Notes under the pieces: generated by a model
What the model saw: only the letters and a program-made list of their open reading frames with translations
Told to the model about the DNA's origin: nothing
Database searches by the model: none
NCBI GenBank assembly: GCA_965220825.1
Contig: OZ244839.1
Coordinates: 2,301,377-2,365,376, forward strand
Source of the DNA: Alphaproteobacteria bacterium
Lineage (GTDB): Bacteria; Pseudomonadota; Alphaproteobacteria; UBA828
Length of the DNA: 64,000 bases
Direction of reading: 5' to 3'
Translations under genes and position numbers: made by a program
Shown: piece by piece, positions 5,797 through 40,230 of the stretch
Position numbering within the stretch: position 1 is the first letter of the stretch
Layout of the letters: each line of letters starts with the position of its first letter

Positions 5797-7311
5797 CTAG
5801 CTCTCGGCCAGCAGACGGGCTGTCAGGAGATTCGGGTCGAGCGGAATGTTCCGCAGAACAACGCCGACGGGACCGAGCGGTGGCAGGACCTTGCCGTCGA
5901 CACGCACCTCGAGAGCACCCGCATTGCCCGTCACCATGACAAGGCCCGGACGGTCGGGCACCCGGTAGATGTCACCCGGACGCAGGATGCGGGTCAACAG
6001 AAGTTCGTCGTCGGGCCCCTGCACCTGGACCCAGCTGTCGGCATAGGCCGCGATGACCACCCGGGCGGAGACGTTGCTGCGCCCGTAGACCTGCGGCACA
6101 TGGGCTTCGGCCTCGACCGCTGCGGGGGGCGCCGCGCCTGCATCGGCCGGGGCCGCTGCCTGCGGTTGCGCCTCGGGCGCGGCCGCGCTCTCCGTGGACG
6201 AAGGCGATGCCGGAACGCCGCTCTCGGGCAGCGTTTCGTAATCCAGCGCCGCTTCGATCGCGAGGTCCTGGGTGAAGGCTGCGACCTCGGGGGCCTCGAT
6301 CTCGGAGGCCGCCGGCGGGGTAGCGGCTTCGTTGCCGCCGACGGCTGCATCGGGCGCTCCGGCGGCAAGCGCGGCCTCCGCGCCATCGGCAGGGGCTGCG
6401 ACCGCAGCGGCGGCCGCACCGCTTTCGTCCCTGGCCGCCATATCGACGGTGGAAAGGGCCTCCGCCGGCTCAGGGGCCGCCGTCTCGACTGCCGCTTCGC
6501 GCGTTGCAGGCGGCGATGCGGACGCGACCGTTGATTCTGCTTCCGGCGCAACGAGTTCCTCCGGCGCAACGGCTGCCTCGTCCTCCGGCGGGACCGTTGC
6601 TTCCGGCGCAGAGATCGCCTCTGGCACCTCCGCAACCACTGTTTCCTCCGGTGCAACTGCAACGACTGCCTCCGGCGCGACGGTTGCCGCCGGTGCAACT
6701 GGAGCGACTGCCTCCGGCGCAACCGTTGCAGCCGGAGAGACGGTTGCCGCCGGTGTCGCGGTTTCGCCGGAGGCCGTTTCCTCGCCGCGTCCCACGGTCT
6801 CCGAGAAGCGGTCCGAAACGTCGGCGACCAGATCGGTCGCGACCCGCCCGTCGCTCTCGTAGTACTGCCAGCCGCCATAGGCGAGGCCGGCAAGAATAAG
6901 GGCTAACAGAACCAGCCAGGCCCGGGGCCTCCGGCCCTCTTTGCCGGGCGTTGGGAAGGAGAGATCGGCGCCGCCCGCTTCATGGTCCATCTCGCGTTTG
7001 AAGGCGTCCACCGTCTCCTGAATGTCGAGTTTGAGAAGGCCCGCATAGCTCCGCACGAAGCCCACCGCATAGGTCGCGCCCGGGAGCGCATCGAAGCGGC
7101 CCTCTTCCAACGCCGCCAAGTGGGACTCTTGAATGCGCAGCGTCTGGGCGGCATCGCGCAACTCGTAGCCGGCGCGGAGCCGCGCATCGTGCAGCGTACG
7201 GCACACATCGGGTACGGACCGGCGGTCGCCTTCCTCGACATCCGTCAATATCGGCTGCCCGGACCGAGCCGGCTCCACCGGCGCCCGCCGAAGGTCTCTC
7301 ATCGCTCGCAT
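5797..7311 (-). CDS. rodZ: RodZ-like cytoskeleton protein: N-terminal HTH, TM helix, long Ala/Pro/Glu/Val-rich linker, C-terminal DUF4115
   Basis: HTH segment DVCRTLHDARLRAGYELRDAAQTLRIQESHLAALEEGRF, TM segment WLVLLALILAGLAYGGW, DUF4115-like C-terminus. The exact start (M1 or M4) is uncertain. Confidence 0.65.
   Translation of the reverse strand: MRAMRDLRRAPVEPARSGQPILTDVEEGDRRSVPDVCRTLHDARLRAGYELRDAAQTLRIQESHLAALEEGRFDALPGATYAVGFVRSYAGLLKLDIQETVDAFKREMDHEAGGADLSFPTPGKEGRRPRAWLVLLALILAGLAYGGWQYYESDGRVATDLVADVSDRFSETVGRGEETASGETATPAATVSPAATVAPEAVAPVAPAATVAPEAVVAVAPEETVVAEVPEAISAPEATVPPEDEAAVAPEELVAPEAESTVASASPPATREAAVETAAPEPAEALSTVDMAARDESGAAAAAVAAPADGAEAALAAGAPDAAVGGNEAATPPAASEIEAPEVAAFTQDLAIEAALDYETLPESGVPASPSSTESAAAPEAQPQAAAPADAGAAPPAAVEAEAHVPQVYGRSNVSARVVIAAYADSWVQVQGPDDELLLTRILRPGDIYRVPDRPGLVMVTGNAGALEVRVDGKVLPPLGPVGVVLRNIPLDPNLLTARLLAES
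6290..6800. repeat. Degenerate short tandem repeats (12-18 bp units such as gcctccggcgcaac / ggttgccgccggtg) encoding the A/P/E/V-rich linker of the RodZ-like gene
   Basis: Visible reiterations in the DNA (ctccggcgca acggctgcctcg tcctccggcg ...) and in the protein (ATVAPEAVAPVAPAATVAPEAVVAVAPEE...). Confidence 0.6.
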
Positions 7312-7572
7312 CCCGCGGCCCGCACGCGACTTGCGGCTCCACGCCCGACAGCTTGAACTCCGTCTACCCGGCGTCCCAGATTAAGCAATGCGCGAGCCGT
7401 TTCCCTTGGTGAAGTCTGTCTAAGTTCAAAATTTACACCGCGTTATTCTCTTGCGCAAACAGGATGTACCGTTACGGCCGCATTTTTGTGCGGACGGACG
7501 TTGCGCCGCCGGGCCAATACCCCGTCCTTCGTGATACCGTCTCGGAATCGGCAGGTGAAACCGGAGGATCTG

Positions 7573-8352
7573 ATGGCGATTACTTTGCGCGGCAAGACGG
7601 CCATCGTGACCGGCGCGGGACGGGGCATCGGCAAGGGAATAGCGGCCGTCTTCGCCAGGGAGGGCGCCAGCGTGCTGGCGGTGAACCGGAGCGCGGCAGC
7701 GGGCGAGGCGGCGGTCGAGGCGATCCGCGCCGATGGCGGCGAGGCGTCGTTCCTGCAAGGCGACGTGAGGGTCCGCGCCGATATGGAGCGGATGGCCGAG
7801 GTCTGCGCGGCGCGCTACGGCGGGATCGACGTCTTGTGCCTCAACGCCGGCATCTATCCCACGGCGCCCATTGCCGAGATGCAGGACGAGACCTGGGACG
7901 AGACGGTCGACACCAATCTCAAGGGCGTCTTCTACGGCGTCCGCGCCTGCATTCCCCATATGAAGGCGCGGAAGAGGGGACGGATCATCGCGATTTCATC
8001 CATAACCGGCCCCAATGTGGGCTGGCCCGGACTCTCGCATTACATGGCGTCCAAGGGCGGCGTGAACGCATTCGTGATCGGCGCCGCGCTGGAGTTCGCC
8101 AAATACAACATCACGGTCAACGCCATATCGCCGGGCACGATCATGAGCCAGGGCCTGGAAGAACTCGGCGGCGGAAGCCTGGACGAAATCCGATCCGTCA
8201 TCCCGGTTGGCTATATCGGGGAGAGCGAGGATATCGCCTATGCCGCGGTCTATCTGGCGAGCGACGAGGCGCGTTACGTCACGGGCCAGGCGCTGGTGGT
8301 CGACGGCGGGCAGATCCTCCCCGAGAGCCCGGCGGCGCTCGCGGACGCGTAA
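7573..8352 (+). CDS. SDR family oxidoreductase
   Basis: TGAGRGIGKG Rossmann motif and YxxxK catalytic pair (YMASK). GGAGG RBS 7 nt upstream of MAITLRGK. The ORF-track start at 7486 is an upstream extension. Confidence 0.85.
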   Translation: MAITLRGKTAIVTGAGRGIGKGIAAVFAREGASVLAVNRSAAAGEAAVEAIRADGGEASFLQGDVRVRADMERMAEVCAARYGGIDVLCLNAGIYPTAPIAEMQDETWDETVDTNLKGVFYGVRACIPHMKARKRGRIIAISSITGPNVGWPGLSHYMASKGGVNAFVIGAALEFAKYNITVNAISPGTIMSQGLEELGGGSLDEIRSVIPVGYIGESEDIAYAAVYLASDEARYVTGQALVVDGGQILPESPAALADA

Positions 8353-8512
8353 GGAGGACGCCTGCGGAGTCCAGATGAAACAAGACCGCGATTGTGCTTA
8401 GATGGCCGCGCGACGCGAAGGGCCACCGGTGCCTTCGGTGCATGGAGACGGAAACGGAGCGTAGCCGCGAAGGGCGCAGTGGCCCGGCGGCGCGGCAGAT
8501 GGGAGATAGGGC

Positions 8513-9706
8513 ATGAACCAGGACAAACTTCTCAAACGGATGTTGCGGAACGACCCCGTGCGCGGCGCCCGGGCCACCCGGCGCCAGGTGCTGCAGGGGC
8601 TGGGTGCCGGCGCGCTCGCGCTTGGCGCCGGAGGGGCGTTCGCCGGCCGGGCCGAGGCGGCGCGCAACCTCGCCATGCTGACATGGGACGGCTATGTGGA
8701 CCCCCGCGTGCTCGACGGCTTTACCGAGCAGCACGGTACGGGGATCGACTACGAACTCCACACCTCCGACCCGGATTCGGTCAACAAGCTCCGCGCCGGC
8801 GAGACCGCCATCTGGGACATCATCAATCTGAACAACCCCTGGGCGCGTGAAATGATGTGGCCCGAAGGGCTCATCGTCGAGCTCGACCGGGCACGGTTCG
8901 ATCCTTATTTCGAAGCGATGCTCCCGATGTTCAAGCCACCCTACAAATGGGCCATGAGCCTCGACAACGAGCATCTCCTCGGCGTCTGCCAGCGGGTGGA
9001 TACCTTCGACTTCGTGGTCAACACCGACGTCATCTCGGCGGAAACGGCGAAGGACGAAGGGTGGAGCCTGTTCGACAATCCGGACATGGCCGGGCGCTAC
9101 GGCATGCTTGCCTACGACAACTGGAACATCATGCATATCTGCATGATCGCGGGCCTCCATCCCTTCAAGGAAAAGACCGACGAGCAGGTCGCCGTTTTCG
9201 AGGAGACGGCGCGGCGCGTGATCAACGGCGCGAAGATGATCTCCGACGATTTCGTCGCCATCAATCTCGGCGTGGTGAACGGCGAGATCGACATGTATTT
9301 CGGCGGCGGGACCTACTCCATCTCGGCGGCACGCCTCGACGGCCTCACCAACCTCTATCACGTGGTGCCGAAGAGCGGCCCGGCGGACGGCAAGGGCGGG
9401 ATCAACTGGATCGAGCTCAGCTCGGTGGTGAACAACCCCGACCTGCACCCCATGGCCATGGACTGGATGGAGTACATCCTCCAGCCCGAGACCTCCTACT
9501 GGGTCGCCACCGCCGGCGGCTTCCTCCTGCCGGTGGGCCAGATGGCACAGCCGGAGCTGCTCGCCAAGTTCACCGCGGAAGAGCTCGATTCCTTCCAGTG
9601 GGACGAGTTCGACTATCGGATCGAGCATTCGGTCGAATATGACGTGGTGCCGGACTACAACCGGCTCTACGACATATATACGGCCGCACGCCGCGAAAAG
9701 GCGTAG
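8513..9706 (+). CDS. ABC transporter periplasmic substrate-binding protein, PotD/PhnS-like, with Tat signal
   Basis: RRQVLQGLGAGALALGAGGAFA twin-arginine signal. PotD-family length and fold motifs. Confidence 0.8.
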   Translation: MNQDKLLKRMLRNDPVRGARATRRQVLQGLGAGALALGAGGAFAGRAEAARNLAMLTWDGYVDPRVLDGFTEQHGTGIDYELHTSDPDSVNKLRAGETAIWDIINLNNPWAREMMWPEGLIVELDRARFDPYFEAMLPMFKPPYKWAMSLDNEHLLGVCQRVDTFDFVVNTDVISAETAKDEGWSLFDNPDMAGRYGMLAYDNWNIMHICMIAGLHPFKEKTDEQVAVFEETARRVINGAKMISDDFVAINLGVVNGEIDMYFGGGTYSISAARLDGLTNLYHVVPKSGPADGKGGINWIELSSVVNNPDLHPMAMDWMEYILQPETSYWVATAGGFLLPVGQMAQPELLAKFTAEELDSFQWDEFDYRIEHSVEYDVVPDYNRLYDIYTAARREKA

Positions 9707-9780
9707 GCTCGGCTCACGGACGGAAGCGGGGCCGCGCGGGTTTTCGCGCGGCCCCGCTCCAGCGCAGATAGAGACCCCCC

Positions 9781-10890
9781 GTGCGGGACGGCGCGGGCAG
9801 GGCGGGGATTCACGGAAACGCCATGGCGAATGCGGCGCCAATCCTGCGCATGGTCGGCCTGACCAGGCAGTACGGCAAATTGCTCGCGGTCAACGACATT
9901 TCCCTCGAGATCGAGGAGGGCGAATTCTTCACCATCGTCGGCCCGTCGGGCAGCGGCAAGACCACGCTCTTGCGCATGCTGGGCGGGCTGGAGAAGCCGA
10001 CGGCGGGGGACATCTTCCTGCGCGACCGGCTGGTCAACGGCGTGCCGGCGAACCGGCGGCCCACCTGCATGGTGTTCCAGTCCCTCGCGCTCTTCAACCA
10101 CAAGACCGTGGGCCAGAACATCGAGTTCTCGCTCAAGATGCGGGGCGAAGCGAGGCGTGCGAGGCGCGAGCGCGGCCTTTCGCTGATGAAGGTGGTCCAG
10201 CTGCCCGAGGATTATTACGACAAGCCCGTCACCAAGTGCTCCGGCGGGGAGCGCCAGCGCGTGGCCCTCGCCCGGGCGCTCGCCTCCGACCCGGACATCC
10301 TGTTCTTCGACGAGCCGCTCTCCGCCATCGACTACCGGCTGCGCAAGCTGCTGGAGGTGGAGCTCAAGGACCTCCATCGCACCACCGGCAAGACCTTCGT
10401 CTACATCACCCACTCCCTCGAGGAGGCCATGGTGATGAGCGACCGGATCGGTATCATGCGGGAAGGCCGGCTCATCCAGATCGGCTCGCCCAACGAGATC
10501 TATCTCCGCCCCCGCAACAAGTTCGTCTCCGAGTTCATGGGCGAGGTGAACACGCTGCCGGTGCGCGCAGGCGCGGACGGCGGGCTCGACTGCCCGGCGT
10601 TCGGCGAGCGCTTCAGAAGCCCCGACCGGCCCGATGGCTTCGACGCCGGCTATCTGGTGATCCGACCGGAATCGGTGCGCTTCCTCAAAGCGCCGGCGGA
10701 CGCCGACAACCACCTTGAGGGGTCGCTCTTCAACGAATACGCGCTGGGCTCCCGGGTCCAGTACCATGTGAGCGTCGGCGACACGATGTTCGTCGTGGAG
10801 AAGCTCCGCGAGCACGCCTACAGGGGTGCGCTGGGCGACAGCGTGCTGATCGGCTGGGACGCCGGGGACAGCGTGCTCGTGACCGACTGA
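9781..10890 (+). CDS. ABC transporter ATP-binding protein (PotA-like)
   Basis: GPSGSGKTT Walker A, LSGGERQRVALARAL signature, FFDEPLSAID Walker B, C-terminal TOBE-like domain. The start may be the internal Met at 9823. Confidence 0.85.
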   Translation: MRDGAGRAGIHGNAMANAAPILRMVGLTRQYGKLLAVNDISLEIEEGEFFTIVGPSGSGKTTLLRMLGGLEKPTAGDIFLRDRLVNGVPANRRPTCMVFQSLALFNHKTVGQNIEFSLKMRGEARRARRERGLSLMKVVQLPEDYYDKPVTKCSGGERQRVALARALASDPDILFFDEPLSAIDYRLRKLLEVELKDLHRTTGKTFVYITHSLEEAMVMSDRIGIMREGRLIQIGSPNEIYLRPRNKFVSEFMGEVNTLPVRAGADGGLDCPAFGERFRSPDRPDGFDAGYLVIRPESVRFLKAPADADNHLEGSLFNEYALGSRVQYHVSVGDTMFVVEKLREHAYRGALGDSVLIGWDAGDSVLVTD

Positions 10891-11795
10891 TGACCAAGCC
10901 GGGAAACGCCGCCGCCCTTTCGTCGCCCGGCGCGCTCACCCTCGTGCTCGGCTGGCTGCGCTCGCCCGGCACTCTCTCCGCGGTGCCGGTGCTGGTGTTC
11001 TTCGTCATCGGCTTCGTGGGGCCGCTGGTGATCGTGCTGGGTTTCAGCTTCATGCCGGAGCGCACCTTCTCGCTCGGCGGCGAGTTCACCACGGAGAACT
11101 ATGGGCGCATCTTCTCCGAGAGCTACTACATCTCCTTCATCTGGTCGTTCGCGCTCGCAGCACTCACCGTCGCGTGCAATCTGCTTATCGGCTATCCCAT
11201 CGCCTACGGCCTCAGCAAGCTGTTCGGACGCTGGGCCGCGCCCGTCACCCTGATCCTGGTGATCCCGCTCTTCGTCTCGGAGAACGTGCGGCTCTTCGGC
11301 TGGTATATCTTCCTGCTGAAGGGCGGCGGGATTCTCGCGGGCGGTCTCAAGACGTTCGGCTTCGATGTGGGCTCCATGCTCTACATGCCGGGCACCATCC
11401 TGATGGGGATGATCTACGTCTATCTGCCGTTCACCCTCTTCCCCATCGTGCTCGGGCTCTCCATGGTGCCGCGGGACCAGGTGGACGCTGCGCGCGATCT
11501 CGGCGCGGGACGCTTCCAGATTTTCCGCGAGATCGAGCTTCCCATCGCCATGCCGGGCATCCTCATCGGCGCGCTGCTTACATTCGTGCTCGCGGTCGGC
11601 GCCATCTCCGAGGCGAAGCTGCTTGGCGGCCAGAACACACCGGTCATCGCGCAGGACATCCAGCACGAGTTCACCTACGCCCAGAACTGGCCGCTGGGCT
11701 CCGCGATCTCCGTCCTGACCATCGCGGTCACGGGCATATTGGTGGTTCTGGTGATGCGCAGGCTCGATCTCGACCGGCTGCTGGGCCGTCGCTGA
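10890..11795 (+). CDS. ABC transporter permease (PotB-like)
   Basis: Multi-TM protein with an EAA-type loop (DAARDLGAGRFQIFREIELP). TGATG overlap with the ATPase gene. Confidence 0.8.
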   Translation: MTKPGNAAALSSPGALTLVLGWLRSPGTLSAVPVLVFFVIGFVGPLVIVLGFSFMPERTFSLGGEFTTENYGRIFSESYYISFIWSFALAALTVACNLLIGYPIAYGLSKLFGRWAAPVTLILVIPLFVSENVRLFGWYIFLLKGGGILAGGLKTFGFDVGSMLYMPGTILMGMIYVYLPFTLFPIVLGLSMVPRDQVDAARDLGAGRFQIFREIELPIAMPGILIGALLTFVLAVGAISEAKLLGGQNTPVIAQDIQHEFTYAQNWPLGSAISVLTIAVTGILVVLVMRRLDLDRLLGRR

Positions 11796-11822
11796 GACCG
11801 GCGGCGGAAATCGGGCGCGAAG

Positions 11823-12626
11823 ATGGAGAGAAAACGCTGGGTGGTGAGCCTGATCGCGGTGTGGACGGCGGCGATCATGCTCTTCCTCTATATCCCCATC
11901 TTCTCGGTGATCGTGAGCTCCTTCGGCAAGTCGCGCTATTTCCGCTTCCCGGTGAAGGCGTGGAGCGACAAGTGGTACGACCAGACACTCGGCGCGAACC
12001 TGACCGCGGACCTGCACCTCACCTCGTTCTACGTGGCGGGCTGCGTCGCCCTCATCGCCACGGTGCTGGGGTTTTTCGGCGCGCTCGCCTTCGCCCGCTA
12101 CAACTGGCGCGGGCGCCGCTTCTATCAGCGGCTCATCATGCTGCCGATCTTCTTCCCGCAAGCGGTCCTCGGCCTCGCGCTGTTGCTGTGGTTCACCTAT
12201 GTGGGGGTCCTGCCGAGCTGGGAAGCGGCGGTCTTCGCACATCTGGTCTGGATCGTTCCCATCGTGACGCTGGTGATCTCGATCCAGGTCTACGGCTTCG
12301 ATGCGGCGCAGGAGGAAGCCGCCTACGATCTCGGCGCGAACCGCTGGCAGGCCTTCCGCGAGGTGACGTTCCCGGCGCTTGCGCCAGGGCTCCTCTCCGG
12401 CGCGCTCTTCGCCTTCCTGCTCTCCTGGGGCAACTTTCCGCTTTCCACCTACACGACCGGCGCCGACAGCACGGTGACGGAGTGGCTCTATACCAAGATG
12501 GGCTCGGGCTACACGCCCATGATCCCCACCATGGGCGCGCTCTCGGTGTTCGGCGCGGTGGTCATCCTGTTCGGCGGCTACATGTTTCTTATCGTCCGCC
12601 GGCGCCGAGGGGAGCGGGCGGGATAG
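11823..12626 (+). CDS. ABC transporter permease (PotC-like)
   Basis: Multi-TM protein with an EAAYDLGANRWQAFREVTFP loop. Confidence 0.8.
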   Translation: MERKRWVVSLIAVWTAAIMLFLYIPIFSVIVSSFGKSRYFRFPVKAWSDKWYDQTLGANLTADLHLTSFYVAGCVALIATVLGFFGALAFARYNWRGRRFYQRLIMLPIFFPQAVLGLALLLWFTYVGVLPSWEAAVFAHLVWIVPIVTLVISIQVYGFDAAQEEAAYDLGANRWQAFREVTFPALAPGLLSGALFAFLLSWGNFPLSTYTTGADSTVTEWLYTKMGSGYTPMIPTMGALSVFGAVVILFGGYMFLIVRRRRGERAG

Positions 12627-12759
12627 AACGGGACGGAAAAAGCCCGAGAGCGCCAAGAGGGAGTTGTCTCGCGGGCCGCATCACGGTCTAATCCGCTTCG
12701 TGCGGGGCGCGGGGCGCGCGTCCTGCGGTACGGGGGATCTGCGCGACAGGGAGCGGCCC

Positions 12760-13059
12760 ATGGCCTACCAAATCACCGACAAGGATCTGGACGTCGTCGA
12801 CGAGTTCATGGCGAAGCCGATCGGGCATCACAGCCCGAACCTCCAGCGCGTGCTGAACACGCTGCGCGGCGTCGACATCAAGGGCAAGCACTGCCTGGTC
12901 TGCACCAAGCCGGGCCGGGAGTGGCGGCTCGCCCAGCTCTCGGGCGTTCGCGGCAAGTCCGTCAAGCTGCTCGACAAGACCTTTGACAATATCGACGACG
13001 CGGAGCGCCACGTCTTCCGCCTCCGCTGGAAGCAGCACACCGGCAAGGCACTGCCCTAG
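12760..13059 (+). CDS. Hypothetical 99-aa protein. Possible small subunit partner of the downstream DMFase-like protein.
   Basis: MAYQITDKDLDVVDEFMAKPIGHH... preceded by a GGGAG RBS. No family recognised. Same strand as, and 80 bp upstream of, the large LamG-like gene. Confidence 0.4.
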   Translation: MAYQITDKDLDVVDEFMAKPIGHHSPNLQRVLNTLRGVDIKGKHCLVCTKPGREWRLAQLSGVRGKSVKLLDKTFDNIDDAERHVFRLRWKQHTGKALP

Positions 13060-13138
13060 CCGGAACCGCCGCGGACGCGGCACCCTTCATGAACGACGAA
13101 CAGCGATCGGCCGCGGCGGCGGCAGGGGAGAGCGAAGA

Positions 13139-15388
13139 ATGACCAAAATCGCGGGCTACGCGGATCGCGTCAGCGCGGCGCCCGGAGAAACCATCAGCTT
13201 CATGGTGAGCTCCGAGGCACCCTCCTACAAATGCGATATCGTTCGCATCATTTGCGGCGACGAGAACCCGAACGGGCCGGGCGTCAAGGAGCAGGTGGTC
13301 CGGACTCCGGCGAACGGAACCTACAAAGGCCGCAGGCAGGTCTGCTACGACGGCTCCTTCCTGGAGGTTCCGGCCCATCGGGCAATCCAGGGCCTGAAGA
13401 GCTTCACCTTCCAGGCCTTCATCTGGCCCACGACGCCGGATCGCGGCACCCAGGCGCTGATCGCCAACTGGCGCGACCGCGACAAGGCGGGCGCCGCCCT
13501 GATCATCACCAAGCAGAACGGCTCGCTCGCACTCTGTCTCGGCGACGGCAAGGGCAAGATCGAGGTCATCGCCACGAACCGGCCGCTGATCCCACACGAG
13601 TGGTACTTCGTCGCGGCGAGCTACGATGCGAAGTCGAAGCAGGTCGTCCTGGTGCAGCAGCCGCTCAAGGAATACCCCAAGGTGGCCCATGGCGGCATCG
13701 CGCGGAAGAAGTCCACGCTCAGAGCGCCCGGCAAGCACGATGCGCCCCTGACCATGGGGGCTTACTTCCGGCGCGTGGACAAGGGCCGCACCGTCTGCAA
13801 CGGGTTCTACAACGGGCGGATCGACAGCCCCCGAATCGCGAACCGGGCACTGAGCCTCGCCGAGATGGAACTCGCCAAGACGAGCCCCGGCGCCGAAGCG
13901 CTCGGCGATGCGATCGTCGGCGCCTGGGACTTCTCGCAAGGGATCACCACCACGCAAGCGGTGGACACCTCCCCCAACGGGCTCGACGGCAAGCTGGTCA
14001 ATCTGCCGACGCGGGCCGTCACCGGGTGGAACTGGGACGCCAGCGAGATGAACTGGCGGAACGCGCCGGAGCAATATGGCGCCATCCACTTCCATGAGGA
14101 CGATCTCTACGACGCCGGCTGGGAAGTGGATTTTTCCCTCACCGTGCCGAAGCGTCTGAAGAGCGGGGTCTATGCCGCACGCCTGCGGGGCGGCGGTTCG
14201 GAGGAGTACGTCCCCTTCGCCGTCCGCGCACCCCGCGGCGCTCCCACGGCGAAGATCTGCTTCCTGCTGCCGACCGCGAGCTATATGGCCTACGCCAACA
14301 CCAACATGGCGACCGATATCGGCGCGGCGCAGCTTCTCGCCGGCCGGCTCGCCGTCCTCAACGAGAAGAACCTGCAGCGCAACGCGCACCGGGAATATGG
14401 CACCTCGCTCTATGACAGCCATATCGACGGCAGCGGGATCTGCTATTCGTCGCGGCTCCGGCCCATCCTCAATTTCCGCCCGAAGGCACTGGAGTGGATC
14501 GGCGGGACGGAGTCCACCCTCTGGCAGTTCAATGCCGACACGCACCTCACCGACTGGCTCGAGGCGCGGGGCTTCGACTATGACGTGGTGACCGACGAGG
14601 ATCTCCACTATGAGGGCCTCTCGGCGATCCAGGACTACCGGGTTGTGCTCTCGGGCTCCCACCCCGAATACCATTCGAAGGCGATGTGGGACGCCATGGA
14701 CGCCTACCAGAAGCGCGGCGGGCGGCTGATGTATATGGGCGCCAACGGCTGGTACTGGCGCATCGCCTTCCACACCGAGGTGCCAGGCTGCATCGAGGTG
14801 CGCCGCGCCGAGGACGGAATCCGCACCTGGATTGCGCGCCCGGGCGAGTACTATCACAGCTTCACCGGCGAGTATGGCGGGCTCTGGCGGCGCAACGGCC
14901 GCCCGCCCCAGCTCATCACCGGCGCCGGCTTCACCGCCCAGGGCTTCGACATCTCGTCCTACTATGTGCGCCAGCCGGACAGCTTCAAAAAAGAGGTCGA
15001 CTGGATATTCAAGGGGATCGGAAAGGACGAGAAGATTGGCGATTTCGGACTGATCGGGGGCGGCGCTGCGGGTCTCGAGCTCGACCGCGCGGACCCGCTC
15101 CTCGGCACGCCGCCCAATGCCTATGTGCTGGCGAGTTCGGAGGGCCACACCGATCTCTATCTGGTGGTGTGCGAAGAGCTGGACGTGAACCGGCCCAATG
15201 CCGACGGCACCCAGGATCCGCTGGTCCGCGCCGACATCGTGTTCTACGAGACGGCGAACGGCGGAGCGGTGTTCTCCACCAGCTCCATCGCCTGGTGCGG
15301 GAGCCTCGCGCACAACAATTACAAAAACAACGTCTCCCGCATGACGGAAAACGTCCTGCGCCGCTTCGCCGACCCGAAACCCTTCTGA
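13139..15388 (+). CDS. N,N-dimethylformamidase large (beta) subunit-like protein: LamG-like jellyroll plus class-I glutamine-amidotransferase-like fold
   Basis: 749 aa. LamG motif TMGAYF...FYNGRIDSPRIANRALSLAEMELA. C-terminal DYRVVLSGSHPEYHSKAMWDAMDAYQKRGGRLMYMGANGWYW GATase1-like segment. The size matches DmfA2-family proteins. Start at the internal MTKIAGYADR, with RBS. Confidence 0.5.
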   Translation: MTKIAGYADRVSAAPGETISFMVSSEAPSYKCDIVRIICGDENPNGPGVKEQVVRTPANGTYKGRRQVCYDGSFLEVPAHRAIQGLKSFTFQAFIWPTTPDRGTQALIANWRDRDKAGAALIITKQNGSLALCLGDGKGKIEVIATNRPLIPHEWYFVAASYDAKSKQVVLVQQPLKEYPKVAHGGIARKKSTLRAPGKHDAPLTMGAYFRRVDKGRTVCNGFYNGRIDSPRIANRALSLAEMELAKTSPGAEALGDAIVGAWDFSQGITTTQAVDTSPNGLDGKLVNLPTRAVTGWNWDASEMNWRNAPEQYGAIHFHEDDLYDAGWEVDFSLTVPKRLKSGVYAARLRGGGSEEYVPFAVRAPRGAPTAKICFLLPTASYMAYANTNMATDIGAAQLLAGRLAVLNEKNLQRNAHREYGTSLYDSHIDGSGICYSSRLRPILNFRPKALEWIGGTESTLWQFNADTHLTDWLEARGFDYDVVTDEDLHYEGLSAIQDYRVVLSGSHPEYHSKAMWDAMDAYQKRGGRLMYMGANGWYWRIAFHTEVPGCIEVRRAEDGIRTWIARPGEYYHSFTGEYGGLWRRNGRPPQLITGAGFTAQGFDISSYYVRQPDSFKKEVDWIFKGIGKDEKIGDFGLIGGGAAGLELDRADPLLGTPPNAYVLASSEGHTDLYLVVCEELDVNRPNADGTQDPLVRADIVFYETANGGAVFSTSSIAWCGSLAHNNYKNNVSRMTENVLRRFADPKPF

Positions 15389-15403
15389 GCCGGGAGCTGC
15401 GCC

Positions 15404-16162
15404 ATGAGCAAGCCGACCGTTCTGATCACCGGCGCCGGCATCGGAATCGGTGAGGCCACGGCGCTCGCCTTCGCCGACGCGGGCTATCACGTCTACGTCA
15501 CCGACGTGCTCGACGAAGAGGGCCGGGAGACCGTCTCGGCCATCGAGGCGAAGGGCGGCAGTGCGAGCTTTACCCGTGTCGACGTGACCGACAGCGCCAA
15601 TGTGGACGCGGCCGTTGCCGCCGCCATTGCCGCCACGGGGCCGCTGGACGCGGTGGTCGCCAATGCGGGCATCGCCCACAAGGTGCCGCTGCCCGAAATG
15701 AGCGACGAAAAGTGGGACCACACGCTGGATGTGGACCTCAAGGGCGTGTTTCGCGTCTGCCGCGCGGCGGCGCCCGCCATGCGCGAAGCGAAGCGCGGCG
15801 CCATGGTGGCGGTCTCCTCGGTGATGGGGACGAGCTATGGCTGGCACGACCATGTGCAGTACAACGCCGCCAAGGCCGGTGTGGTCGGCCTGGTGCGGGG
15901 GCTCGCCTGCGACCTCGGCGGCGACGGTATCCGCGTCAACGGGATCGCGCCCGGCTTCATCAAGACGGCGCAGGCGCTTTCCACCGTGCACTCGGTGGGG
16001 CTCGCGGGGCTGGAGGCGGCGGCCGACTATATTCCGCTCGGCCGCTACGGCGAGGCGGAGGACATCGCCTCCGTCATCCTCTTCCTCTGTTCCGACGGCG
16101 CGCGCTATGTGAGCGGCCAGACGCTGATCGTGGACGGCGGCCTCACCGTCGGCCGCTATTGA
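15404..16162 (+). CDS. SDR family oxidoreductase
   Basis: TGAGIGIGEA Rossmann motif, NAGI, YNAAK catalytic motif. Confidence 0.85.
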   Translation: MSKPTVLITGAGIGIGEATALAFADAGYHVYVTDVLDEEGRETVSAIEAKGGSASFTRVDVTDSANVDAAVAAAIAATGPLDAVVANAGIAHKVPLPEMSDEKWDHTLDVDLKGVFRVCRAAAPAMREAKRGAMVAVSSVMGTSYGWHDHVQYNAAKAGVVGLVRGLACDLGGDGIRVNGIAPGFIKTAQALSTVHSVGLAGLEAAADYIPLGRYGEAEDIASVILFLCSDGARYVSGQTLIVDGGLTVGRY

Positions 16163-16183
16163 CGGCAGCCGCTACGCGGGCGC

Positions 16184-16795
16184 TCAGCGGCCGGCGTCCT
16201 CTCCCAGCACGGCGCGGCGGAAGCGGTCCTTCAGATAGGGGCCGTTGCGCGGCGGCAGTACCCGGGGCAGCGGCTCGGCCCTGACCTTCACGGCAAGGAA
16301 GGTGGGACCCGGCGCCTCGTGGACGAGCGCAAGCGCGCCCTCGAGCCCGGCTTCGTCGGCGACCGTCCGCGCCTCCCGGAAGCCCGCGGCCTCGGCGGCG
16401 CGGGCAAGGTCCGCGCCATAGGCCGTGTGGCTCGGCTGCATGCCCGTCTCGCCGTGGCGTTCATTGTCGAGGACCGCGATCGCGAGGTTCTCCGGCGCCT
16501 GGGTCGCGACGGTGGCGAGGCAGCCGAGGCCCATCAACATGTCGCCGTCTCCGGTGAGCACCACCACGCGCCGGGCGGGCTGCGCCAGCGCGAGGCCGAG
16601 CCCGATCATGGACGCATTGCCCATGGCGCCCCACAGCGAGAAGTGGCGCACATTGTCGCCGAGGGCGGCGCAGTCCCAGGTCGCGGAGCCGAGACCCGGG
16701 ATCACCAGCGTATCCTCCCGGCCTTCGAGCAGCATCGCCACCGCTTCGCGCCGGCCGAGCGTGGTGGCGGGTTGGCTTCGCGCCCGGGCGTTCAT
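16184..16795 (-). CDS. comE: Sulfopyruvate/phosphonopyruvate decarboxylase beta subunit (ComE-like, TPP-binding C-terminal domain)
   Basis: GDGDMLMGLGCLATVA...NLAIAVLDNERHGETGMQ TPP-binding GDG-x-N motif. ~203 aa. ATGA overlap with the alpha subunit gene. The ORF-track ORF at 16184..17077 is a spurious extension. Confidence 0.7.
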   Translation of the reverse strand: MNARARSQPATTLGRREAVAMLLEGREDTLVIPGLGSATWDCAALGDNVRHFSLWGAMGNASMIGLGLALAQPARRVVVLTGDGDMLMGLGCLATVATQAPENLAIAVLDNERHGETGMQPSHTAYGADLARAAEAAGFREARTVADEAGLEGALALVHEAPGPTFLAVKVRAEPLPRVLPPRNGPYLKDRFRRAVLGEDAGR

Positions 16796-17319
16796 CGCGT
16801 CTCGAAGCGTTTCGCGCCGATCACGCGCTGTCCGATCAGGACGGCGGCTGCGGCTTCGCTCTCGAAGGCGAGCGCGGCGGCCGCGGCGACGGTCTCGCCG
16901 GTGTCGGCCTCGTCGTCCACCCGCGAGACGATCACGCCGCATTGCGTGAGGTGCGCCGCGGCCCCCTGACCCATGGGAAGCTGCCAGGGATTGGTCTCGC
17001 CCCATTCGCCCCGCATGGTCACCAGGGCGAGAAACGGAAAGAGGCAGCTGCGGATCAGCGATAGAGCGGCGACGCAATTGCCGACGCCGCTCGACTGCAT
17101 CAGCAGCACCGCGCGCTCGCCGCCGAGCCAGGCGCCGGCGGCGAGCGCCGGGCCTTCCTGCTCATGGGCGAGGAGAACCGGGCGCATGGCGGGGTCGGCA
17201 TGGCAGAGCGCGAGCAGCCCGTCGAGACCCGCATCCGGCACATAGGCGACTTGCCGAACGCGGGCGTCCGCGAGCGCGCGATGGGCCTGCGCGCCCCAGC
17301 CGCACCGGGGAGCGCTCAC
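16792..17319 (-). CDS. comD: Sulfopyruvate/phosphonopyruvate decarboxylase alpha subunit (ComD-like, TPP pyrimidine-binding domain)
   Basis: VAYVPDAGLDGLLAL...LAHEQEGPALAAGAWLGGERAVLLMQSSGVGNCVAAL, typical of the TPP enzyme N-terminal domain. 175 aa. Confidence 0.7.
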   Translation of the reverse strand: MSAPRCGWGAQAHRALADARVRQVAYVPDAGLDGLLALCHADPAMRPVLLAHEQEGPALAAGAWLGGERAVLLMQSSGVGNCVAALSLIRSCLFPFLALVTMRGEWGETNPWQLPMGQGAAAHLTQCGVIVSRVDDEADTGETVAAAAALAFESEAAAAVLIGQRVIGAKRFETR

Positions 17320-19958: not shown

Positions 19959-20606
19959 ATGGCATCGGACATCGACATCTACAAGCACCAGAATTTCGGC
20001 AATCGGATCGGCTTCGGAGAGCGGCCGGCGCTTCTGATCGTAGACTTCGTCAACGGGTTCACCGATCCGAACAAGTTCGGCGGCGGCAACATCCAGGAGG
20101 CCATCGCGAAGACGGAGACCCTGCTCGCGGCCTGCCGGCAGCGGGGCGTCGCGGTCGCGCACACGCGCGTGATCTTCGCGGACGACGGCGCGGACGCCAA
20201 CGTGATGTGCCTCAAGGTGCCGGCGCTCACCACCCTCACCGAGGACGCGCCGGAGAGCCAGATCGTGGATCGCCTCGCGCCCCGCCCCGGCGAGATCGTG
20301 GTGCGCAAGCGCGTACCCTCCGCCTTCTTCGGGACGGACCTGGCGCCCGCCTTCGCCCTGCAGCGCATCGACACGGTGATGGTGGCGGGCTGCACCACCA
20401 GCGGCTGCGTGCGCGCCTCCGTGCTGGACGCCATGTGCCACGGCTTCCGCCCGGTTGTGGTGACCGACTGCGTCGGCGACCGGGCGCTCGGGCCGCATGA
20501 AGCCAACCTCTTCGACATGGGCCAGAAATACGCCGATCTCGCGACTTGCGACGAGGCCATCGCCGCGCTGCCGGCCCGCACGACGCCGGCGCAAGCCGCG
20601 GAATAG
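19959..20606 (+). CDS. Isochorismatase-family cysteine hydrolase (N-carbamoylsarcosine amidase/ureidoacrylate amidohydrolase-like)
   Basis: LLIVDFVNGF, catalytic Cys context VMVAGCTTSGCVRASVLDA, ~215 aa. Confidence 0.75.
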   Translation: MASDIDIYKHQNFGNRIGFGERPALLIVDFVNGFTDPNKFGGGNIQEAIAKTETLLAACRQRGVAVAHTRVIFADDGADANVMCLKVPALTTLTEDAPESQIVDRLAPRPGEIVVRKRVPSAFFGTDLAPAFALQRIDTVMVAGCTTSGCVRASVLDAMCHGFRPVVVTDCVGDRALGPHEANLFDMGQKYADLATCDEAIAALPARTTPAQAAE

Positions 20607-20617
20607 GGCGCGCCCCC

Positions 20618-21646
20618 GTGAAGGCCGTCCTGATCAGGGAGCATGGCGGCGTCGAGCGGCTCCGCCTGGAGGAGGTCGAGACGCCCGAGCCCGGCGAGGG
20701 CGAGGTGCTGGTGCGAATCCGGGCGAGCGGGATCAACCATCTGGACCACGACGTGCGCGAGGGCATCTCCGGCATTCCGGTCTCGCTTCCCCATGTGCCG
20801 GGCAGCGAAGGGGCGGGCGAGATCGCGGCGCTGGGGCCCGGGGTAAAGGGCCTGGAGGTGGGCATGCGGGTCGCCATCCACTTCGCCCAGGGGGATCCGC
20901 ACTCCGAGCCCTGGCTCAGCGGGCTGGACGGCGTGGACTTCACCCATGGGCGGATCGGCGCGAGCCGCTGGGGCACCCATGCGGAGTACACCGTCTCCGA
21001 CGCCCGCTCGGTGCTCCCGCTGCCCGAGGGCCTCCCGTTCGAGACCGCCGCCGCCGGCATGATCGGCTTCGGCACAGCTTGGCACATGACGGTGACTCTC
21101 GGCCGCGTGCAGGCGGGAGAGACGGTGCTGGTGAACGCGGCGGGCAGCGTGGTCGGCTCTTCGGCGATCCAGGTCGCCGTGCTCCACGGCGCCCGGGTGA
21201 TCGCAAGTGCGGGCTCGGCCGCCAAGCTCGAGAAGGCACGCGCCCTCGGCGCCGCCGACGTCATCGACTACACGCACCAGAACATTCGGGACGCGGCCCT
21301 GAGCATGACCGATGGGCGGGGCGTGGACCTCGTGATCGAGAGCGTGGGCGGCGAGGTGCTGCGCCAGAGCATCGACGCGGTCTGCTTCAACGGCCGCCTC
21401 GTCACCTGCGGCGCCCATGCCGGGGAGACGGTGCCGTTGAACGTCATCGAGCTCTTCCGCAAGCACATGACGATCCACGGCAGCCATCTGTGCGGCCGCC
21501 GGGAGCTCGCGCGCGTCTTTCAGCTCATGGCCGAGGGCGTGCTCACCCCGGCCATCCACAAGGTCTATCCCCTGGCGGACATCCAGGAGGCCGCGCGGCG
21601 CACCGCGAACCGGGACTTCTTCGGCAAGATGGTGCTGACGCCCTGA
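20618..21646 (+). CDS. Zinc-type alcohol dehydrogenase/quinone oxidoreductase (MDR family)
   Basis: MKAVLIREHGG...GEGEVLVRIRASGINHLD, Rossmann motif VLVNAAGSVVGSSAIQ. GTG start assumed at 20618. Confidence 0.8.
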   Translation: MKAVLIREHGGVERLRLEEVETPEPGEGEVLVRIRASGINHLDHDVREGISGIPVSLPHVPGSEGAGEIAALGPGVKGLEVGMRVAIHFAQGDPHSEPWLSGLDGVDFTHGRIGASRWGTHAEYTVSDARSVLPLPEGLPFETAAAGMIGFGTAWHMTVTLGRVQAGETVLVNAAGSVVGSSAIQVAVLHGARVIASAGSAAKLEKARALGAADVIDYTHQNIRDAALSMTDGRGVDLVIESVGGEVLRQSIDAVCFNGRLVTCGAHAGETVPLNVIELFRKHMTIHGSHLCGRRELARVFQLMAEGVLTPAIHKVYPLADIQEAARRTANRDFFGKMVLTP

Positions 21647-21655
21647 CGCAGCGGC

Positions 21656-23068
21656 TCAGCGCGCCGCGCCGGCCGTGCCGCGCTTGAGGAACCTGCCGCC
21701 GCCTTCCCTGCCGAGCCAGCGCTCGCCGTCCACGATCAGTTCGCCGCGCAGGAACACCTTGCGCACCCGGCCCGTGACCTCGCGGCCCTCGAAGAGCGAG
21801 TAGTCGATGCGGCTGTGGTGCTCGGCGGCGCGGATGGTCCAGACCTCCCGCGGGTCGAACAGCACGATGTCGGCGTCCGAGCCCACGGCGATGGTGCCCT
21901 TGCGCGGGAACAGGCCGAAAAGCTTTGCCGGTGCGGTGGCGGTGAGCTCCACATAGCGGTTGAGCGAGAGGGCGTTGTTGCGCACGCCGCCGTCATAGAC
22001 CAACGGCATGCGGGTCTCGAGCCCCGGCGCGCCGTTGGGAATCTTGCTGAAATCGTCCCGGCCCAGATCCTTGGAGAGGCGCAAGCCCAGCACGTTCTCG
22101 CTGAAGCAGAAGGGGCAATGGTCGGTCGCGATGACCTGGAGGTCGTCGGTCTTCAGGCCCCGCCAGAGGGCGTGCTGATGCGCCTTGCCACGGAGCGGCG
22201 GGGTCATGACGTATTTCGCGCCGTCGAAGCCCGGCCGGTCATATTCCTCGTCGGTGAGGAAGAGATAGTGCGGGCAGGTTTCGGCATGGACCGGCAGGCC
22301 CCGGTCCCGCGCTTCCGTCACCGCATCCAGCGCCTCGCCGGCGGAGAGATGCACCAGATAGACCGGCGCCTCGGCGAGTTCGGCGATACGGATCACCCTG
22401 TGGGTCGCCTCGCCCTCCATGATGGTCGGGCGGGTCAGCATATGCCATTTGGGGCTGGTGTTGCCGGCGGCGAGCGCTTCCCGCACCAGCACGTCGATGA
22501 CATGGCCGTTCTCCGCATGGACCTGGATCATGCCGCCCTCGGCGCCGGCAAGCCGCATGGCCTGGAAGATCGCCCCGTCGTCGATCATCAGCACGTCCGG
22601 ATAGGCGGTGAAGAGCTTGAAGGTGGAGACGCCCTCGTCCCGCATCAGGGTCTTCATGTCGGCGAGGGACTGCTCGTTCACGTCCGTCATGATCATGTGG
22701 GCGCCCATATCGACGGCCGCGACGGCGGCGCGTTCGTGCCAGTCCGCGAGGCCCGCGAGCGGGCTCTCGCCCTTCACCTGCGCGGCGAAGTCCACCACCG
22801 TGGTCGTGCCGCCGAAGGCCGCGGCCTTCGAGCCGGTATAGAAGGTGTCCGCGGTGCGGGCGGGGCCGAAATCCCAATCGAGATGGGTGTGCACGTCCAC
22901 GCCGCCGGGGAAGACCAGCAAGCCGGACGCGTCGTGGGTCTCCACATCCTCGCCGAGCGGCAGGTCGCGCCCGATCATGCGCACCCGGCCGTCTTCCATG
23001 AGGATATCGGCGGTGTAGTCGTCCACCGCCGTTACGATGCGCCCGTTCCGGATCGCCGTCGCCGCCAT
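21656..23068 (-). CDS. D-hydantoinase/dihydropyrimidinase (cyclic amidohydrolase)
   Basis: GGVDVHTHLD metal-binding motif, STFKLF carbamylated-Lys motif, 470 aa. Confidence 0.8.
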   Translation of the reverse strand: MAATAIRNGRIVTAVDDYTADILMEDGRVRMIGRDLPLGEDVETHDASGLLVFPGGVDVHTHLDWDFGPARTADTFYTGSKAAAFGGTTTVVDFAAQVKGESPLAGLADWHERAAVAAVDMGAHMIMTDVNEQSLADMKTLMRDEGVSTFKLFTAYPDVLMIDDGAIFQAMRLAGAEGGMIQVHAENGHVIDVLVREALAAGNTSPKWHMLTRPTIMEGEATHRVIRIAELAEAPVYLVHLSAGEALDAVTEARDRGLPVHAETCPHYLFLTDEEYDRPGFDGAKYVMTPPLRGKAHQHALWRGLKTDDLQVIATDHCPFCFSENVLGLRLSKDLGRDDFSKIPNGAPGLETRMPLVYDGGVRNNALSLNRYVELTATAPAKLFGLFPRKGTIAVGSDADIVLFDPREVWTIRAAEHHSRIDYSLFEGREVTGRVRKVFLRGELIVDGERWLGREGGGRFLKRGTAGAAR

Positions 23069-23238
23069 CGCCGCCTCCAGACGCCGTGGAATCCCGACGC
23101 ATCATGCCACGCGGCCCGGGGAGGGTCCACGCTCCGGCAGCCCTGGTGCCGCATGAACCGGCGGCCCGGGGGAGGCGCTGCGCCCCGCGCGCAGCGGTGG
23201 CCCCTCGCGACCGCCTCTCCTGCGGTAAGCGGGCTCCT

Positions 23239-25020: not shown

Positions 25021-25061
25021 CGCTCGCCTCGTTCGTTCCGCCGCGTCCGCGCGCTTCGCGG

Positions 25062-27122: not shown

Positions 27123-27283
27123 GTCTTCCCCGGTTCTTCGCCGTTGTCGCGCGCAAAGCCCCCCGGAACGATGCGCCGCAAGACAAATAGAGCGCTTACG
27201 GCAAAAAGGAAACCGCACGGACGGCCCGGCGCCGGCAAGGCTTGCTCCGTGAGCGCGCCCCTCCCCCGGCGGGGGGCCCGCCC

Positions 27284-34614: not shown

Positions 34615-35304
34615 TCAGCCGGAGGCGAGGCCGGCCAGGCGGGCGAGAACGTCGTCGGTCTCCGTCACGTCGGCCGAGCAGCGGTCCATGTCGAACAGGT
34701 TGATGGCATGGGATATGGGAATCCGGTCGAACACCGCGTCCGCCGGCACCACGGCGCGGAAATTGTAGGAAAAGGCGTCGAACACGGTGGCGCGGACGCA
34801 GTTGCAGGTGGCGCCCCCGGTAACGATCAGCGTGTCCACCGCGCGGTCGATCAGATAGGGCAGGAGCGGCGTGCCGAGGAAGGAGCTGGGCTTCTTCTTG
34901 GTGAAGACGAGGTCGCCCGGCCGCGGCGCGACATCCGCGACGATGGCGGCGCCGTGGGTGCCCTCGAAATAGACGTTCTCTCCCTGCTCCGCGCCGATCT
35001 TGGCATCGAACAGCCCCGCATCACCCGCCGTCCGGTCGATGGCGAAGCGCGTATAGACCACGGGCGCGGCCGCCGCCCGCGCCGCCTCCAGGATGCGCCC
35101 GATCTGCGCCACCGCCGCCCAGCCGGCGGCACAGGCGTAAGGATAGGCCGCCGGGTCGCCGCCCTCGCGCGCACCCACCATATAGTTCTGCACGTCGATG
35201 ACGATGACGGCGGGCCGCCGCCCGAAGCCCACGCGCCGCGCCCAGCGGCCGCGCGCGATGGTCGCCCTGTCGGCATCGCTCAGATAGCGCTCCCAGTCCT
35301 TCAC
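34615..35304 (-). CDS. Isochorismatase-family hydrolase
   Basis: PAVIVIDVQNYM, catalytic Cys TLIVTGGATCNCVRATVFDA. GTG start overlaps the permease stop (GTGA). Confidence 0.75.
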   Translation of the reverse strand: MKDWERYLSDADRATIARGRWARRVGFGRRPAVIVIDVQNYMVGAREGGDPAAYPYACAAGWAAVAQIGRILEAARAAAAPVVYTRFAIDRTAGDAGLFDAKIGAEQGENVYFEGTHGAAIVADVAPRPGDLVFTKKKPSSFLGTPLLPYLIDRAVDTLIVTGGATCNCVRATVFDAFSYNFRAVVPADAVFDRIPISHAINLFDMDRCSADVTETDDVLARLAGLASG

Positions 35305-38139: not shown

Positions 38140-38161
38140 GCGGCCGCGCCCGTCTCTGCGG

Positions 38162-40217: not shown

Positions 40218-40230
40218 CGGGCGAAAACGC

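Follow-up and report, generated by a model that had tools for sequence, protein, structure and literature searches.

What does a gene pair resembling the two subunits of N,N-dimethylformamidase (DMFase) do in an uncultured environmental alphaproteobacterium? We analysed a 64,000-nucleotide stretch of contig OZ244839.1 (assembly GCA_965220825.1, positions 2,301,377 to 2,365,376 of the forward strand), here called the window, in which such a pair stands between genes for an ATP-binding cassette (ABC) importer and for a short-chain dehydrogenase/reductase (SDR). Both proteins, a small (alpha) subunit of 99 amino acids (aa) and a large (beta) subunit of 749 aa, belong to the DMFase family. We consider it likely that they would form a cytoplasmic, heteromeric amidohydrolase of this family, with a mononuclear Fe(III) centre, that acts on an imported N-acyl amine.

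The only well-studied substrate of DMFase is man-made and has been in existence only since 1893. The enzyme has two novel folds and a strained Fe(III) centre of two tyrosines and one glutamate, and the origin of its folds has been called unknown (PMC7686228).

Two subunits of the DMFase family

The large subunit matches the Pfam family DMFA2_C (PF20254) with an E-value of 1.1e-103 (348 bits against a cut-off of 27) and, over residues 77-242, Laminin_G_3 with E 7.6e-9 (36.3 bits against a cut-off of 27.6). The motif FYNGRIDSPRIANRALSLAEMEL, at residues 223-245, falls where the Laminin_G_3 match ends on its C-terminal side. The protein's top match in the PDB is the large subunit of Paracoccus DMFase (6LVB_A; E 1.2e-187, 43-44 per cent identity), and the two align end to end (window residues 4-748 against 6-758). 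The next-best PDB match, also over the full length, is N-acetyl-(R)-beta-phenylalanine acylase (8HUY; E 1.4e-164, 40 per cent identity). A preliminary description of this DNA, made from the letters and open reading frames (ORFs) without database searches, had assigned the protein to the DMFase large-subunit family on the strength of a LamG-type jellyroll and a C-terminal segment like class-I glutamine amidotransferases (GATases). The PF20254 and 6LVB_A matches bear out that assignment, and the architecture agrees with the published domain description of DMFase, which gives domain III an alpha/beta/alpha core of ThuA-like/glutamine-amidotransferase type.

The Fe ligands of Paracoccus DMFase are Y399, Y440 and E521, and mutagenesis has shown H519, N547 and E657 to be essential (PMC7686228). 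All six are kept in the window protein, where the alignment places the ligands at Y385, Y425 and E510 (the two tyrosines and one glutamate whose conservation the preliminary description had asked about) and the essential residues at H508, N536 and E647. None of the six varies among 16 relatives or in the acylase 8HUY. By these residues the large subunit has an intact active site of the DMFase family; because the acylase keeps all six residues as well, they mark the family active site and not specificity for N,N-dimethylformamide (DMF).

One position near the substrate differs. In Paracoccus DMFase, F693, which is contributed by the neighbouring large subunit, forms the constriction that explains the enzyme's narrow specificity (PMC7686228). 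It corresponds to V683 of the window protein, an approximate assignment given the weak alignment of this loop. At the gate, members of the window clade have Val, Ile or Leu, and the clade at 49 per cent identity has His.

The small subunit gave no match, even at E 10, in Pfam and NCBIfam scans. The Pfam copy that was scanned lacked PF26354 (DMF_alpha), and this newer family covers the homologues, so the null result reflects a gap in the library rather than an orphan protein. In a collection of 5.8 billion proteins we found 118 relatives, every one with a precomputed PF26354 assignment, which is carried by homologues at 86-90 per cent identity. The word 'orphan' in the preliminary description therefore does not hold, while its reading of the 99-aa ORF as the small subunit gains support from sequence, profile and fold. 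A direct PDB sequence search found 6lvb_B, the DMFase small subunit, at E 0.002, and a profile of 28 family sequences matched the same chain at E 1.2e-10 (profile positions 5-93 against chain residues 37-126). An AlphaFold2 model of the protein had a pLDDT of 90.7, and its only significant Foldseek matches in the PDB were 6lvb_B, 6lvv_B and 6lvd_B (E 3e-6, TM 0.73, root-mean-square deviation 2.2 Å). Weak matches of the profile to ribosomal protein S15 (E ~0.003), which the fold search did not support, were taken as chance. The gene is under purifying selection, with ratios of non-synonymous to synonymous substitution (dN/dS) of 0.06-0.13 against three relatives. The 99-aa protein is a genuine small subunit.

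It is a short one, with 99 aa against 132 aa in Paracoccus. The window protein and its family start at a point corresponding to residue ~33-37 of 6lvb_B and are without the first ~32-36 residues of the Paracoccus subunit. A HMMER scan of 1.84 billion representative proteins returned 757 members of the small-subunit family at E ≤1e-3. Among the best 150 of these 757, most are ~100 aa long with the domain beginning at residues 1-10, and a minority carry an N-terminal extension of 20-45 residues as in the Paracoccus protein. In Paracoccus the first ~32-36 residues make up the N-terminal helix, which wedges between the two large subunits (PMC7686228); this helix is a trait of the Paracoccus enzyme and not of the Pfam family.

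We collected 33 related loci from GTDB species representatives, of which 31 had sufficient upstream DNA. The small gene lies directly 5' of the large gene in 31/31 of these and, in the same order, in 5/5 further metagenome loci, so that the small ORF seen upstream in the window has a counterpart in 36/36 loci. Among the genome loci the pairing persists down to 49 per cent identity in the large and 29-33 per cent in the small subunit. In two proteins, P0319 (872 aa) and P0337 (854 aa), DMF_alpha is followed by a short linker and a complete large subunit; these fusions may be gene-calling artefacts, though they are two independent cases. A further database protein, P0333 (735 aa), also has DMF_alpha fused N-terminally to a large subunit. 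The large subunit of Paracoccus DMFase is inactive alone (PMC7686228). The adjacency in 36/36 loci, the fusions and the inactivity of the lone DMFase large subunit support an obligate heteromer of the two subunits.

Relation to characterised family members

The window protein is 43 per cent identical to DMFase and 40 per cent identical to the acylase 8HUY; between DMFase and the acylase the identity is 34 per cent. Neighbour-joining places the window clade on a branch of its own, apart from both. We found at least 4930 large-subunit matches at E ≤1e-20; the best 120 of these are all at least 57 per cent identical to the window protein and are unnamed or named automatically, none being characterised. 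Judged from its sequence, the pair is paralogous rather than orthologous to the DMFase that degrades the solvent, and it belongs to a large environmental clade whose members combine a short form of the small subunit with an aliphatic gate residue in place of Phe693. Given the separate branch, the changed gate and the precedents in the family for substrates other than DMF, we file the pair under the DMFase family but not as a dimethylformamidase.

One close characterised relative is DmfA1/DmfA2 of Paracoccus sp. DMF (6LVB/6LVC/6LVV; EC 3.5.1.56). As in the window, the small-subunit gene comes first, the large subunit has three domains with identical Fe ligands and the same three essential residues, and the small subunits share a fold. 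The Paracoccus enzyme differs in its Phe693 gate (Val in the window) and in the length of its small subunit. It accepts only DMF, N-methylformamide, N-ethylformamide and formamide. The settings also differ: dmfR-dmfA1A2 is plasmid-borne and LuxR-regulated in an isolate from solvent sludge, whereas the window pair lies beside an ABC importer and SDRs in an uncultured host.

The acylase (8HUY/8I59/8I5A) shares the full-length architecture of the large subunit together with all Fe ligands and catalytic residues, and in several stretches near the active site (GEYGGLWR, GGAAG-ELD and EVRR-E-G-R-W) the window protein is closer to it than to DMFase. Unlike the window pair, its PDB entry holds one type of chain (a homodimer, A,B) and no small subunit, and the loop with the DMFase gate residue is missing from the alignment. 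Its substrate is an N-acetyl aromatic beta-amino acid, and nothing at the window locus points to such a substrate. In the window clade, by contrast, the small gene is always present and is under purifying selection.

Two further pairs offer precedents for divergent specificity. AceAB of Pigmentiphaga sp. D-2 is a DMFase-family enzyme of alpha and beta subunits that cleaves acetamiprid and has no activity on DMF (PMC11573777). Known here from its description only, it resembles the window pair in having two subunits and differs in acting on a xenobiotic insecticide. Paracoccus aminophilus JCM 7686 carries on its chromid pAMI5 a second pair like dmfA1-dmfA2, with ~34 and 40 per cent identity to the true DMFase. 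This pair, in another host and on another type of replicon, is likened to the window pair as a paralogous small and large gene by description and not by sequence. With these two precedents, family members at such a distance need not act on DMF.

Gene neighbourhood and transcription

The ORF list and a Pfam scan of the window place eight genes on the + strand between 7573 and 16162 (Table 1).

Table 1. The pair and its neighbours on the + strand, with positions in the window
Feature	Position	Strand	Basis
SDR1, classical SDR	7573-8352	+	Pfam adh_short_C2, 5.6e-61
Solute-binding protein, distant member of the PotD/PotF superfamily, with twin-arginine signal peptide	8513-9706	+	Pfam SBP_bac_8, 3.5e-14
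ABC importer ATPase, PotA-like, with TOBE domain	9820-10890	+	Pfam ABC_tran, 2.7e-31; TOBE_2, 6.9e-8
ABC importer permease 1	10890-11795	+	Pfam BPD_transp_1, 7e-16
ABC importer permease 2	11823-12626	+	Pfam BPD_transp_1, 2.4e-15
Promoter-like element	12663-12694	+	Conserved among relatives
Small (alpha) subunit of the DMF_alpha family (short form, 99 aa)	12760-13059	+	Homologues, profile, fold
Large (beta) subunit, 749 aa, immunoglobulin-like, LamG/pentraxin and catalytic ThuA/GATase-like domains	13139-15388	+	Pfam, PDB
SDR2, classical SDR	15404-16162	+	Pfam adh_short_C2, 8e-66

The small gene runs from an ATG at 12760 to a stop at 13059, with the Shine-Dalgarno sequence GGGAG 8-12 nt 5' of its start. 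The large gene runs from an ATG at 13139 to a stop at 15388, preceded by the Shine-Dalgarno sequence GGGGAGAG, and SDR2 starts 15 nt past this stop. The coordinates, ORF lengths and LamG motif given in the preliminary description were all correct. Two longer ORFs, of 131 aa from TTG 12664 for the small gene and of 801 aa from TTG 12983 for the large one, are unsupported; relatives use the equivalents of ATG 12760 and ATG 13139. The TTG of the 131-aa form falls within the -35 part of a conserved promoter-like motif. For the ATPase we adopted the start used in the near-identical locus L035, which is the closest public copy (window offset ~+3138). L035 has apparent frameshifts, with permease 1 called at 178 aa, the large subunit at 771 aa and SDR2 at 138 aa. 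These are probably errors of long-read assembly, and the window copy is intact.

The promoter-like element consists of GTTGTCT, 17 nt and TCTAATCC, and reads as a -35 box TTGTCT and a -10 box TCTAAT. It lies 66 nt 5' of the small-subunit start codon and stands out in the alignment upstream of the small gene as a conserved block within otherwise diverged intergenic DNA. The pattern occurs once in the window and had 0 matches in 100 shuffles. The exact pattern is found once each in 18/41 related loci, ~30-85 nt 5' of the small gene, and it is retained where an MttB gene, not a permease gene, precedes the small gene. Close variants (TTGCCTC...GTCTAATC and TTGTCTC...GTTGTAATC) occur in L009, L013, L039, L040 and L041, in which the pair is followed by SDR2. 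A scan of 7200-16400 for consensus promoters and terminators found nothing beyond shuffled expectation; it missed the element because of the C at position 2 of the -10 hexamer, and only the comparison of relatives brought the element to light. An Rfam scan of 7200-13200 at E-values up to 1 found no riboswitch or other RNA family, and the only Rfam match in the whole window was one tRNA-Met.

Since this element precedes the small gene, 7573-16162 is likely to comprise two transcription units, and the pair with SDR2 is probably a unit of its own, read from the putative promoter. The preliminary description had treated the whole interval as one operon. Its observation that all genes share a strand stands, but there are probably at least two transcription units.

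Importer and pair are nevertheless linked well beyond the window. The genes for all four importer components, binding protein, ATPase and two permeases, recur 5' of the pair and on the same strand in 18 loci, which span 69-90 per cent large-subunit identity and three otherwise differing neighbourhoods. Binding-protein orthologues in these loci are 78-90 per cent identical. The twin-arginine signal of the binding protein was read off its sequence as the motif RRQVL. Its best PDB matches are of the PotD, PotF and SpuD type (E 7e-9 to 1e-3). The importer resembles PotABCD and PotFGHI in its four-component layout and Pfam families, and these systems include the closest structural relatives of its binding protein, which scores below the PotD cut-off and belongs to them at the level of the superfamily only.

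A second importer, of a far more canonical PotF type, lies elsewhere in the window (35301-41610, - strand), and its binding protein scores 434 bits against the PotF model. The glutamine-synthetase-like gene beside this importer shows similarity to gamma-glutamylputrescine synthetase, at 244 bits and short of the cut-off.

The three neighbourhoods have the importer and the pair as their common core. In arrangement A (the window, L001 and L035), SDR1, importer, pair and SDR2 are followed by a convergent, split decarboxylase dependent on thiamine pyrophosphate (TPP). A reduced form of A, in L009, L013, L016/L039, L040 and L041, has the pair and SDR2 with or without the TPP genes and no importer. 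Arrangement B (~17 loci) has a DAO-type oxidase and a GntR regulator 5' of the importer, and then the pair and an ABC-2 exporter; in ~8 of these loci a LysR and MttB pair is inserted between importer and pair. Arrangement C (L017, L018 and L020) begins with SDR1 and ends with importer and pair, and a pair of class-III aminotransferase genes lies between SDR1 and the binding protein. The DAO-type oxidase stands beside the importer in 14 related loci and a glutamine-synthetase-like gene in L034 only. These neighbours in B and C are amine-processing enzymes, none of which reaches an equivalog cut-off for polyamine or gamma-aminobutyrate (GABA) metabolism. More distant members of the clade lie beside amidases and hydantoinases or beside a divergent molybdopterin oxidoreductase.

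An SDR2 orthologue (87-88 per cent identity) lies 15-36 nt directly 3' of the pair in L001, L009, L013, L016/L039, L040 and L041, which makes SDR2 the most tightly coupled partner of the pair in one sub-lineage. SDR1 orthologues are found 5' of the importer only in L001 (82 per cent) and in L017/L018/L020 (66-67 per cent). Of the association with importer and SDRs made in the preliminary description, the importer half is kept in 18 loci; the SDR half is variable.

Several further genes accompany the pair in the window or in its relatives. The split two-subunit TPP-dependent decarboxylase of the window (16184-16735 and 16792-17319, both on the - strand) runs convergently towards SDR2. Similar to sulfopyruvate and phosphonopyruvate decarboxylases but well short of every equivalog cut-off (125 bits against a cut-off of 221 and 115 bits against 312), it is co-conserved with SDR2 in L001, L009, L013 and L040; its partner may be SDR2 and not the amidase. 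In L017 (15284-19573) and L033, a set of GATase_6, an ORF of GXGXG size, Glu_synthase and Gln-synt_C lies ~3 kb 3' of the pair, and this set, which L017 (a relative at 69 per cent identity) shares with L033, resembles the N-methylglutamate pathway (mgsABC and gmaS). An MttB-family gene stands between importer and small gene in L006, L007, L008, L010, L011, L014 and L034 (86 per cent identical). Its 508-aa product (for example in L034, 6852-9526) scores 332 bits against the trimethylamine methyltransferase model, below the cut-off. A LysR gene accompanies MttB in most of these loci, with none detected in L008, and cobalamin lower-ligand genes (cobT, cobS, cobC-like) lie 3' in the MttB-bearing loci. 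In a tblastn search, the window had no orthologues of the N-methylglutamate-pathway-like, MttB, DAO, GntR or aminotransferase neighbour genes; the only matches, at ~32 per cent, were to GltB and a glutamine-synthetase-like gene.

Candidate substrates and further features of the window

By homology to Paracoccus DMFase, Y385, Y425 and E510 would hold the Fe(III), and an Fe-bound water would attack the amide carbonyl with E647 as the base. N536 would stabilise the oxyanion, and H508 is expected to be essential as well. Cleavage of the amide would release a free amine together with a carboxylic acid. The small subunit would pack against the catalytic domain; in Paracoccus DMFase it is required for activity and helps shape the substrate entrance. 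As substrate we propose a small, natural N-acyl (formyl or acetyl) amine derivative that also bears a cationic group, for which an acylated diamine or polyamine or a similar amino compound would be fitting candidates. Uptake would be through the adjacent, distant PotD-type importer, with hydrolysis following in the cytoplasm, and in the window lineage one of the products may be oxidised or reduced by SDR2, which is probably co-transcribed. Lineages would differ in how the released amine is disposed of. In nature the enzyme probably acts on an amide that bears an amine and is imported, and not on the industrial solvent DMF.

Several results weigh against this proposal. The binding protein scores only 40 bits against the NCBIfam PotD model, for which the cut-off is 582, and has no PotF match. 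With a protein so remote from PotD, and a far more canonical PotF system elsewhere in the window, the adjacent importer is probably not a simple polyamine transporter; as far as its sequence tells, its ligand is probably not putrescine or spermidine itself. The promoter-like element weakens the case for an importer link that one operon would have provided. SDR1 and SDR2 are each absent from many related loci, and searches of both against the PDB and NCBIfam returned generic FabG-like and alcohol-dehydrogenase matches below equivalog cut-offs, with no clue to a substrate. The short small subunit, which does without the wedging helix, means that the quaternary structure may differ from that of DMFase. 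Finally, a single class of substrate across the clade is not assured, because the contexts of its distant members differ.

The most literal alternative, a genuine N,N-dimethylformamidase (EC 3.5.1.56) that supports growth on DMF or N-methylformamide by releasing dimethylamine or methylamine and formate, appears very improbable to us. It would account for the two subunits in the characterised order with the small one first, for the retention of every catalytic residue and for the automatic annotation of many relatives as 'N,N-dimethylformamidase', and the Paracoccus enzyme does also cleave N-methylformamide, N-ethylformamide and formamide. The N-methylglutamate-pathway-like set downstream in L017 and L033 also speaks for it, and a molybdopterin oxidoreductase adjoining the pair in L037 and L038 could be a formate dehydrogenase. 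But the identity to DMFase is only 43 per cent, and an acylase of N-acetyl-amino acids, which keeps the same catalytic residues, is almost as similar to the window protein. The Phe693 gate behind the narrow specificity is a valine, and AceAB and the second pair of P. aminophilus, at a similar distance, are inactive on DMF or unlinked to it. The 64-kb window lacks the N-methylglutamate-pathway and MttB orthologues of the relatives, the locus has a chromosomal setting beside housekeeping genes in uncultured Alphaproteobacteria that are mostly marine, and a PotD-type importer would be unexpected for a small neutral amide. A second alternative moves the enzyme functionally nearer to the acylase, as a deacetylase of N-acetyl-beta- or gamma-amino acids or of N-acetyl-diamines or polyamines, feeding the free amine to transaminase or gamma-glutamylation pathways. 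The full-length 8HUY match at 40 per cent, the active-site stretches closer to the acylase and a smaller gate residue compatible with an acyl group larger than formyl all fit, as do the PotD/PotF-superfamily importer that adjoins the pair in 18 loci and the omega-aminotransferases (L017/L018/L020), DAO oxidase (14 loci) and glutamine-synthetase-like gene (L034), which partly resemble both known routes of diamine catabolism. We still find it unlikely, if considerably less so than a true DMFase: no neighbouring enzyme reaches the equivalog cut-off for polyamine or GABA metabolism, the binding protein is far from both PotD and PotF, and the acylase structure is a homodimer with no small subunit, whereas the window clade always has one. 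The acetylpolyamine amidohydrolases known to us belong, moreover, to another, HDAC-like family.

Alternatively, the pair may be independent of the importer and SDR1, the functional unit being promoter, small gene, large gene and SDR2, with an endogenous or diffusible amide as substrate and the adjacency in the window a lineage-specific juxtaposition. The promoter-like element lies directly 5' of the small gene in all arrangements, the pair and SDR2 occur without the importer among housekeeping or unrelated genes in L009, L013, L039, L040 and L041, and LysR and MttB genes separate importer and pair in several relatives. Yet adjacency of importer and pair over 69-90 per cent identity, in 18 loci and three neighbourhoods, is hard to explain without selection, and an internal promoter is compatible with co-regulation or read-through. 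We hold this alternative to be about as doubtful as the deacetylase, and continue to prefer a heteromeric amidohydrolase for an imported N-acyl amine.

For the clade as a whole, a more speculative picture, which we put slightly lower than either of these last two alternatives, is of a natural, pre-industrial role: a widespread marine iron amidase that would deacylate N-acylated amines of a host or of plankton, acquired through a dedicated PotD-like importer. In this picture the bacteria would possibly be sponge-associated, and candidate substrates would include N-methyl amides and acetylated diamines or polyamines. If true, this would reveal a non-HDAC route to free amines and explain the source from which solvent-degrading DMFases were recruited. 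Searches of the literature on natural substrates of DMFase homologues and for mentions of sponge symbionts found nothing usable. The DMFase family is very large in environmental data (at least 4930 large-subunit matches and 757 small-subunit cluster representatives) and essentially uncharacterised, and this locus is a compact test case for its natural substrate, with an intact site, a putatively obligate small subunit, a binding protein that can be screened for ligands and a dehydrogenase coupled to the pair. In practice it is of value for finding substrates and for engineering enzymes that hydrolyse amides; the locus is not a new kind of system.

In L040 (517-1982), ankyrin-repeat proteins adjoin the pair, and names of host isolates include RHO3_bin and APA_bin. 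The ankyrin proteins and isolate names hint that part of the clade lives in marine sponges.

Genes for hydrolases of amides and lactams abound in the window. A cluster for cyclic-amide hydrolysis at 19959-27218 comprises an isochorismatase-family hydrolase (19959-20606), a gene resembling zinc alcohol dehydrogenases and quinone oxidoreductases (20618-21646), a dihydropyrimidinase/D-hydantoinase above the equivalog cut-off (21656-23068) and a pair of ATP-dependent hydantoinase/oxoprolinase B and A genes (23239-27218) that is nearest to caprolactamase, below its cut-off. A creatinine/N-methylhydantoin pathway was considered for this cluster and rejected in view of the dihydropyrimidinase/D-hydantoinase equivalog and of the HyuA/B-like pair nearest caprolactamase. 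A second hydantoinase A/B pair lies at 51509-55380. Upstream of SDR1, at 5797-7311 on the - strand, is a RodZ-like protein (HTH_25 and RodZ_C according to the L035 annotation) with a very long low-complexity centre rich in Ala, Pro, Glu and Val, which gives many spurious overlapping ORFs on both strands.

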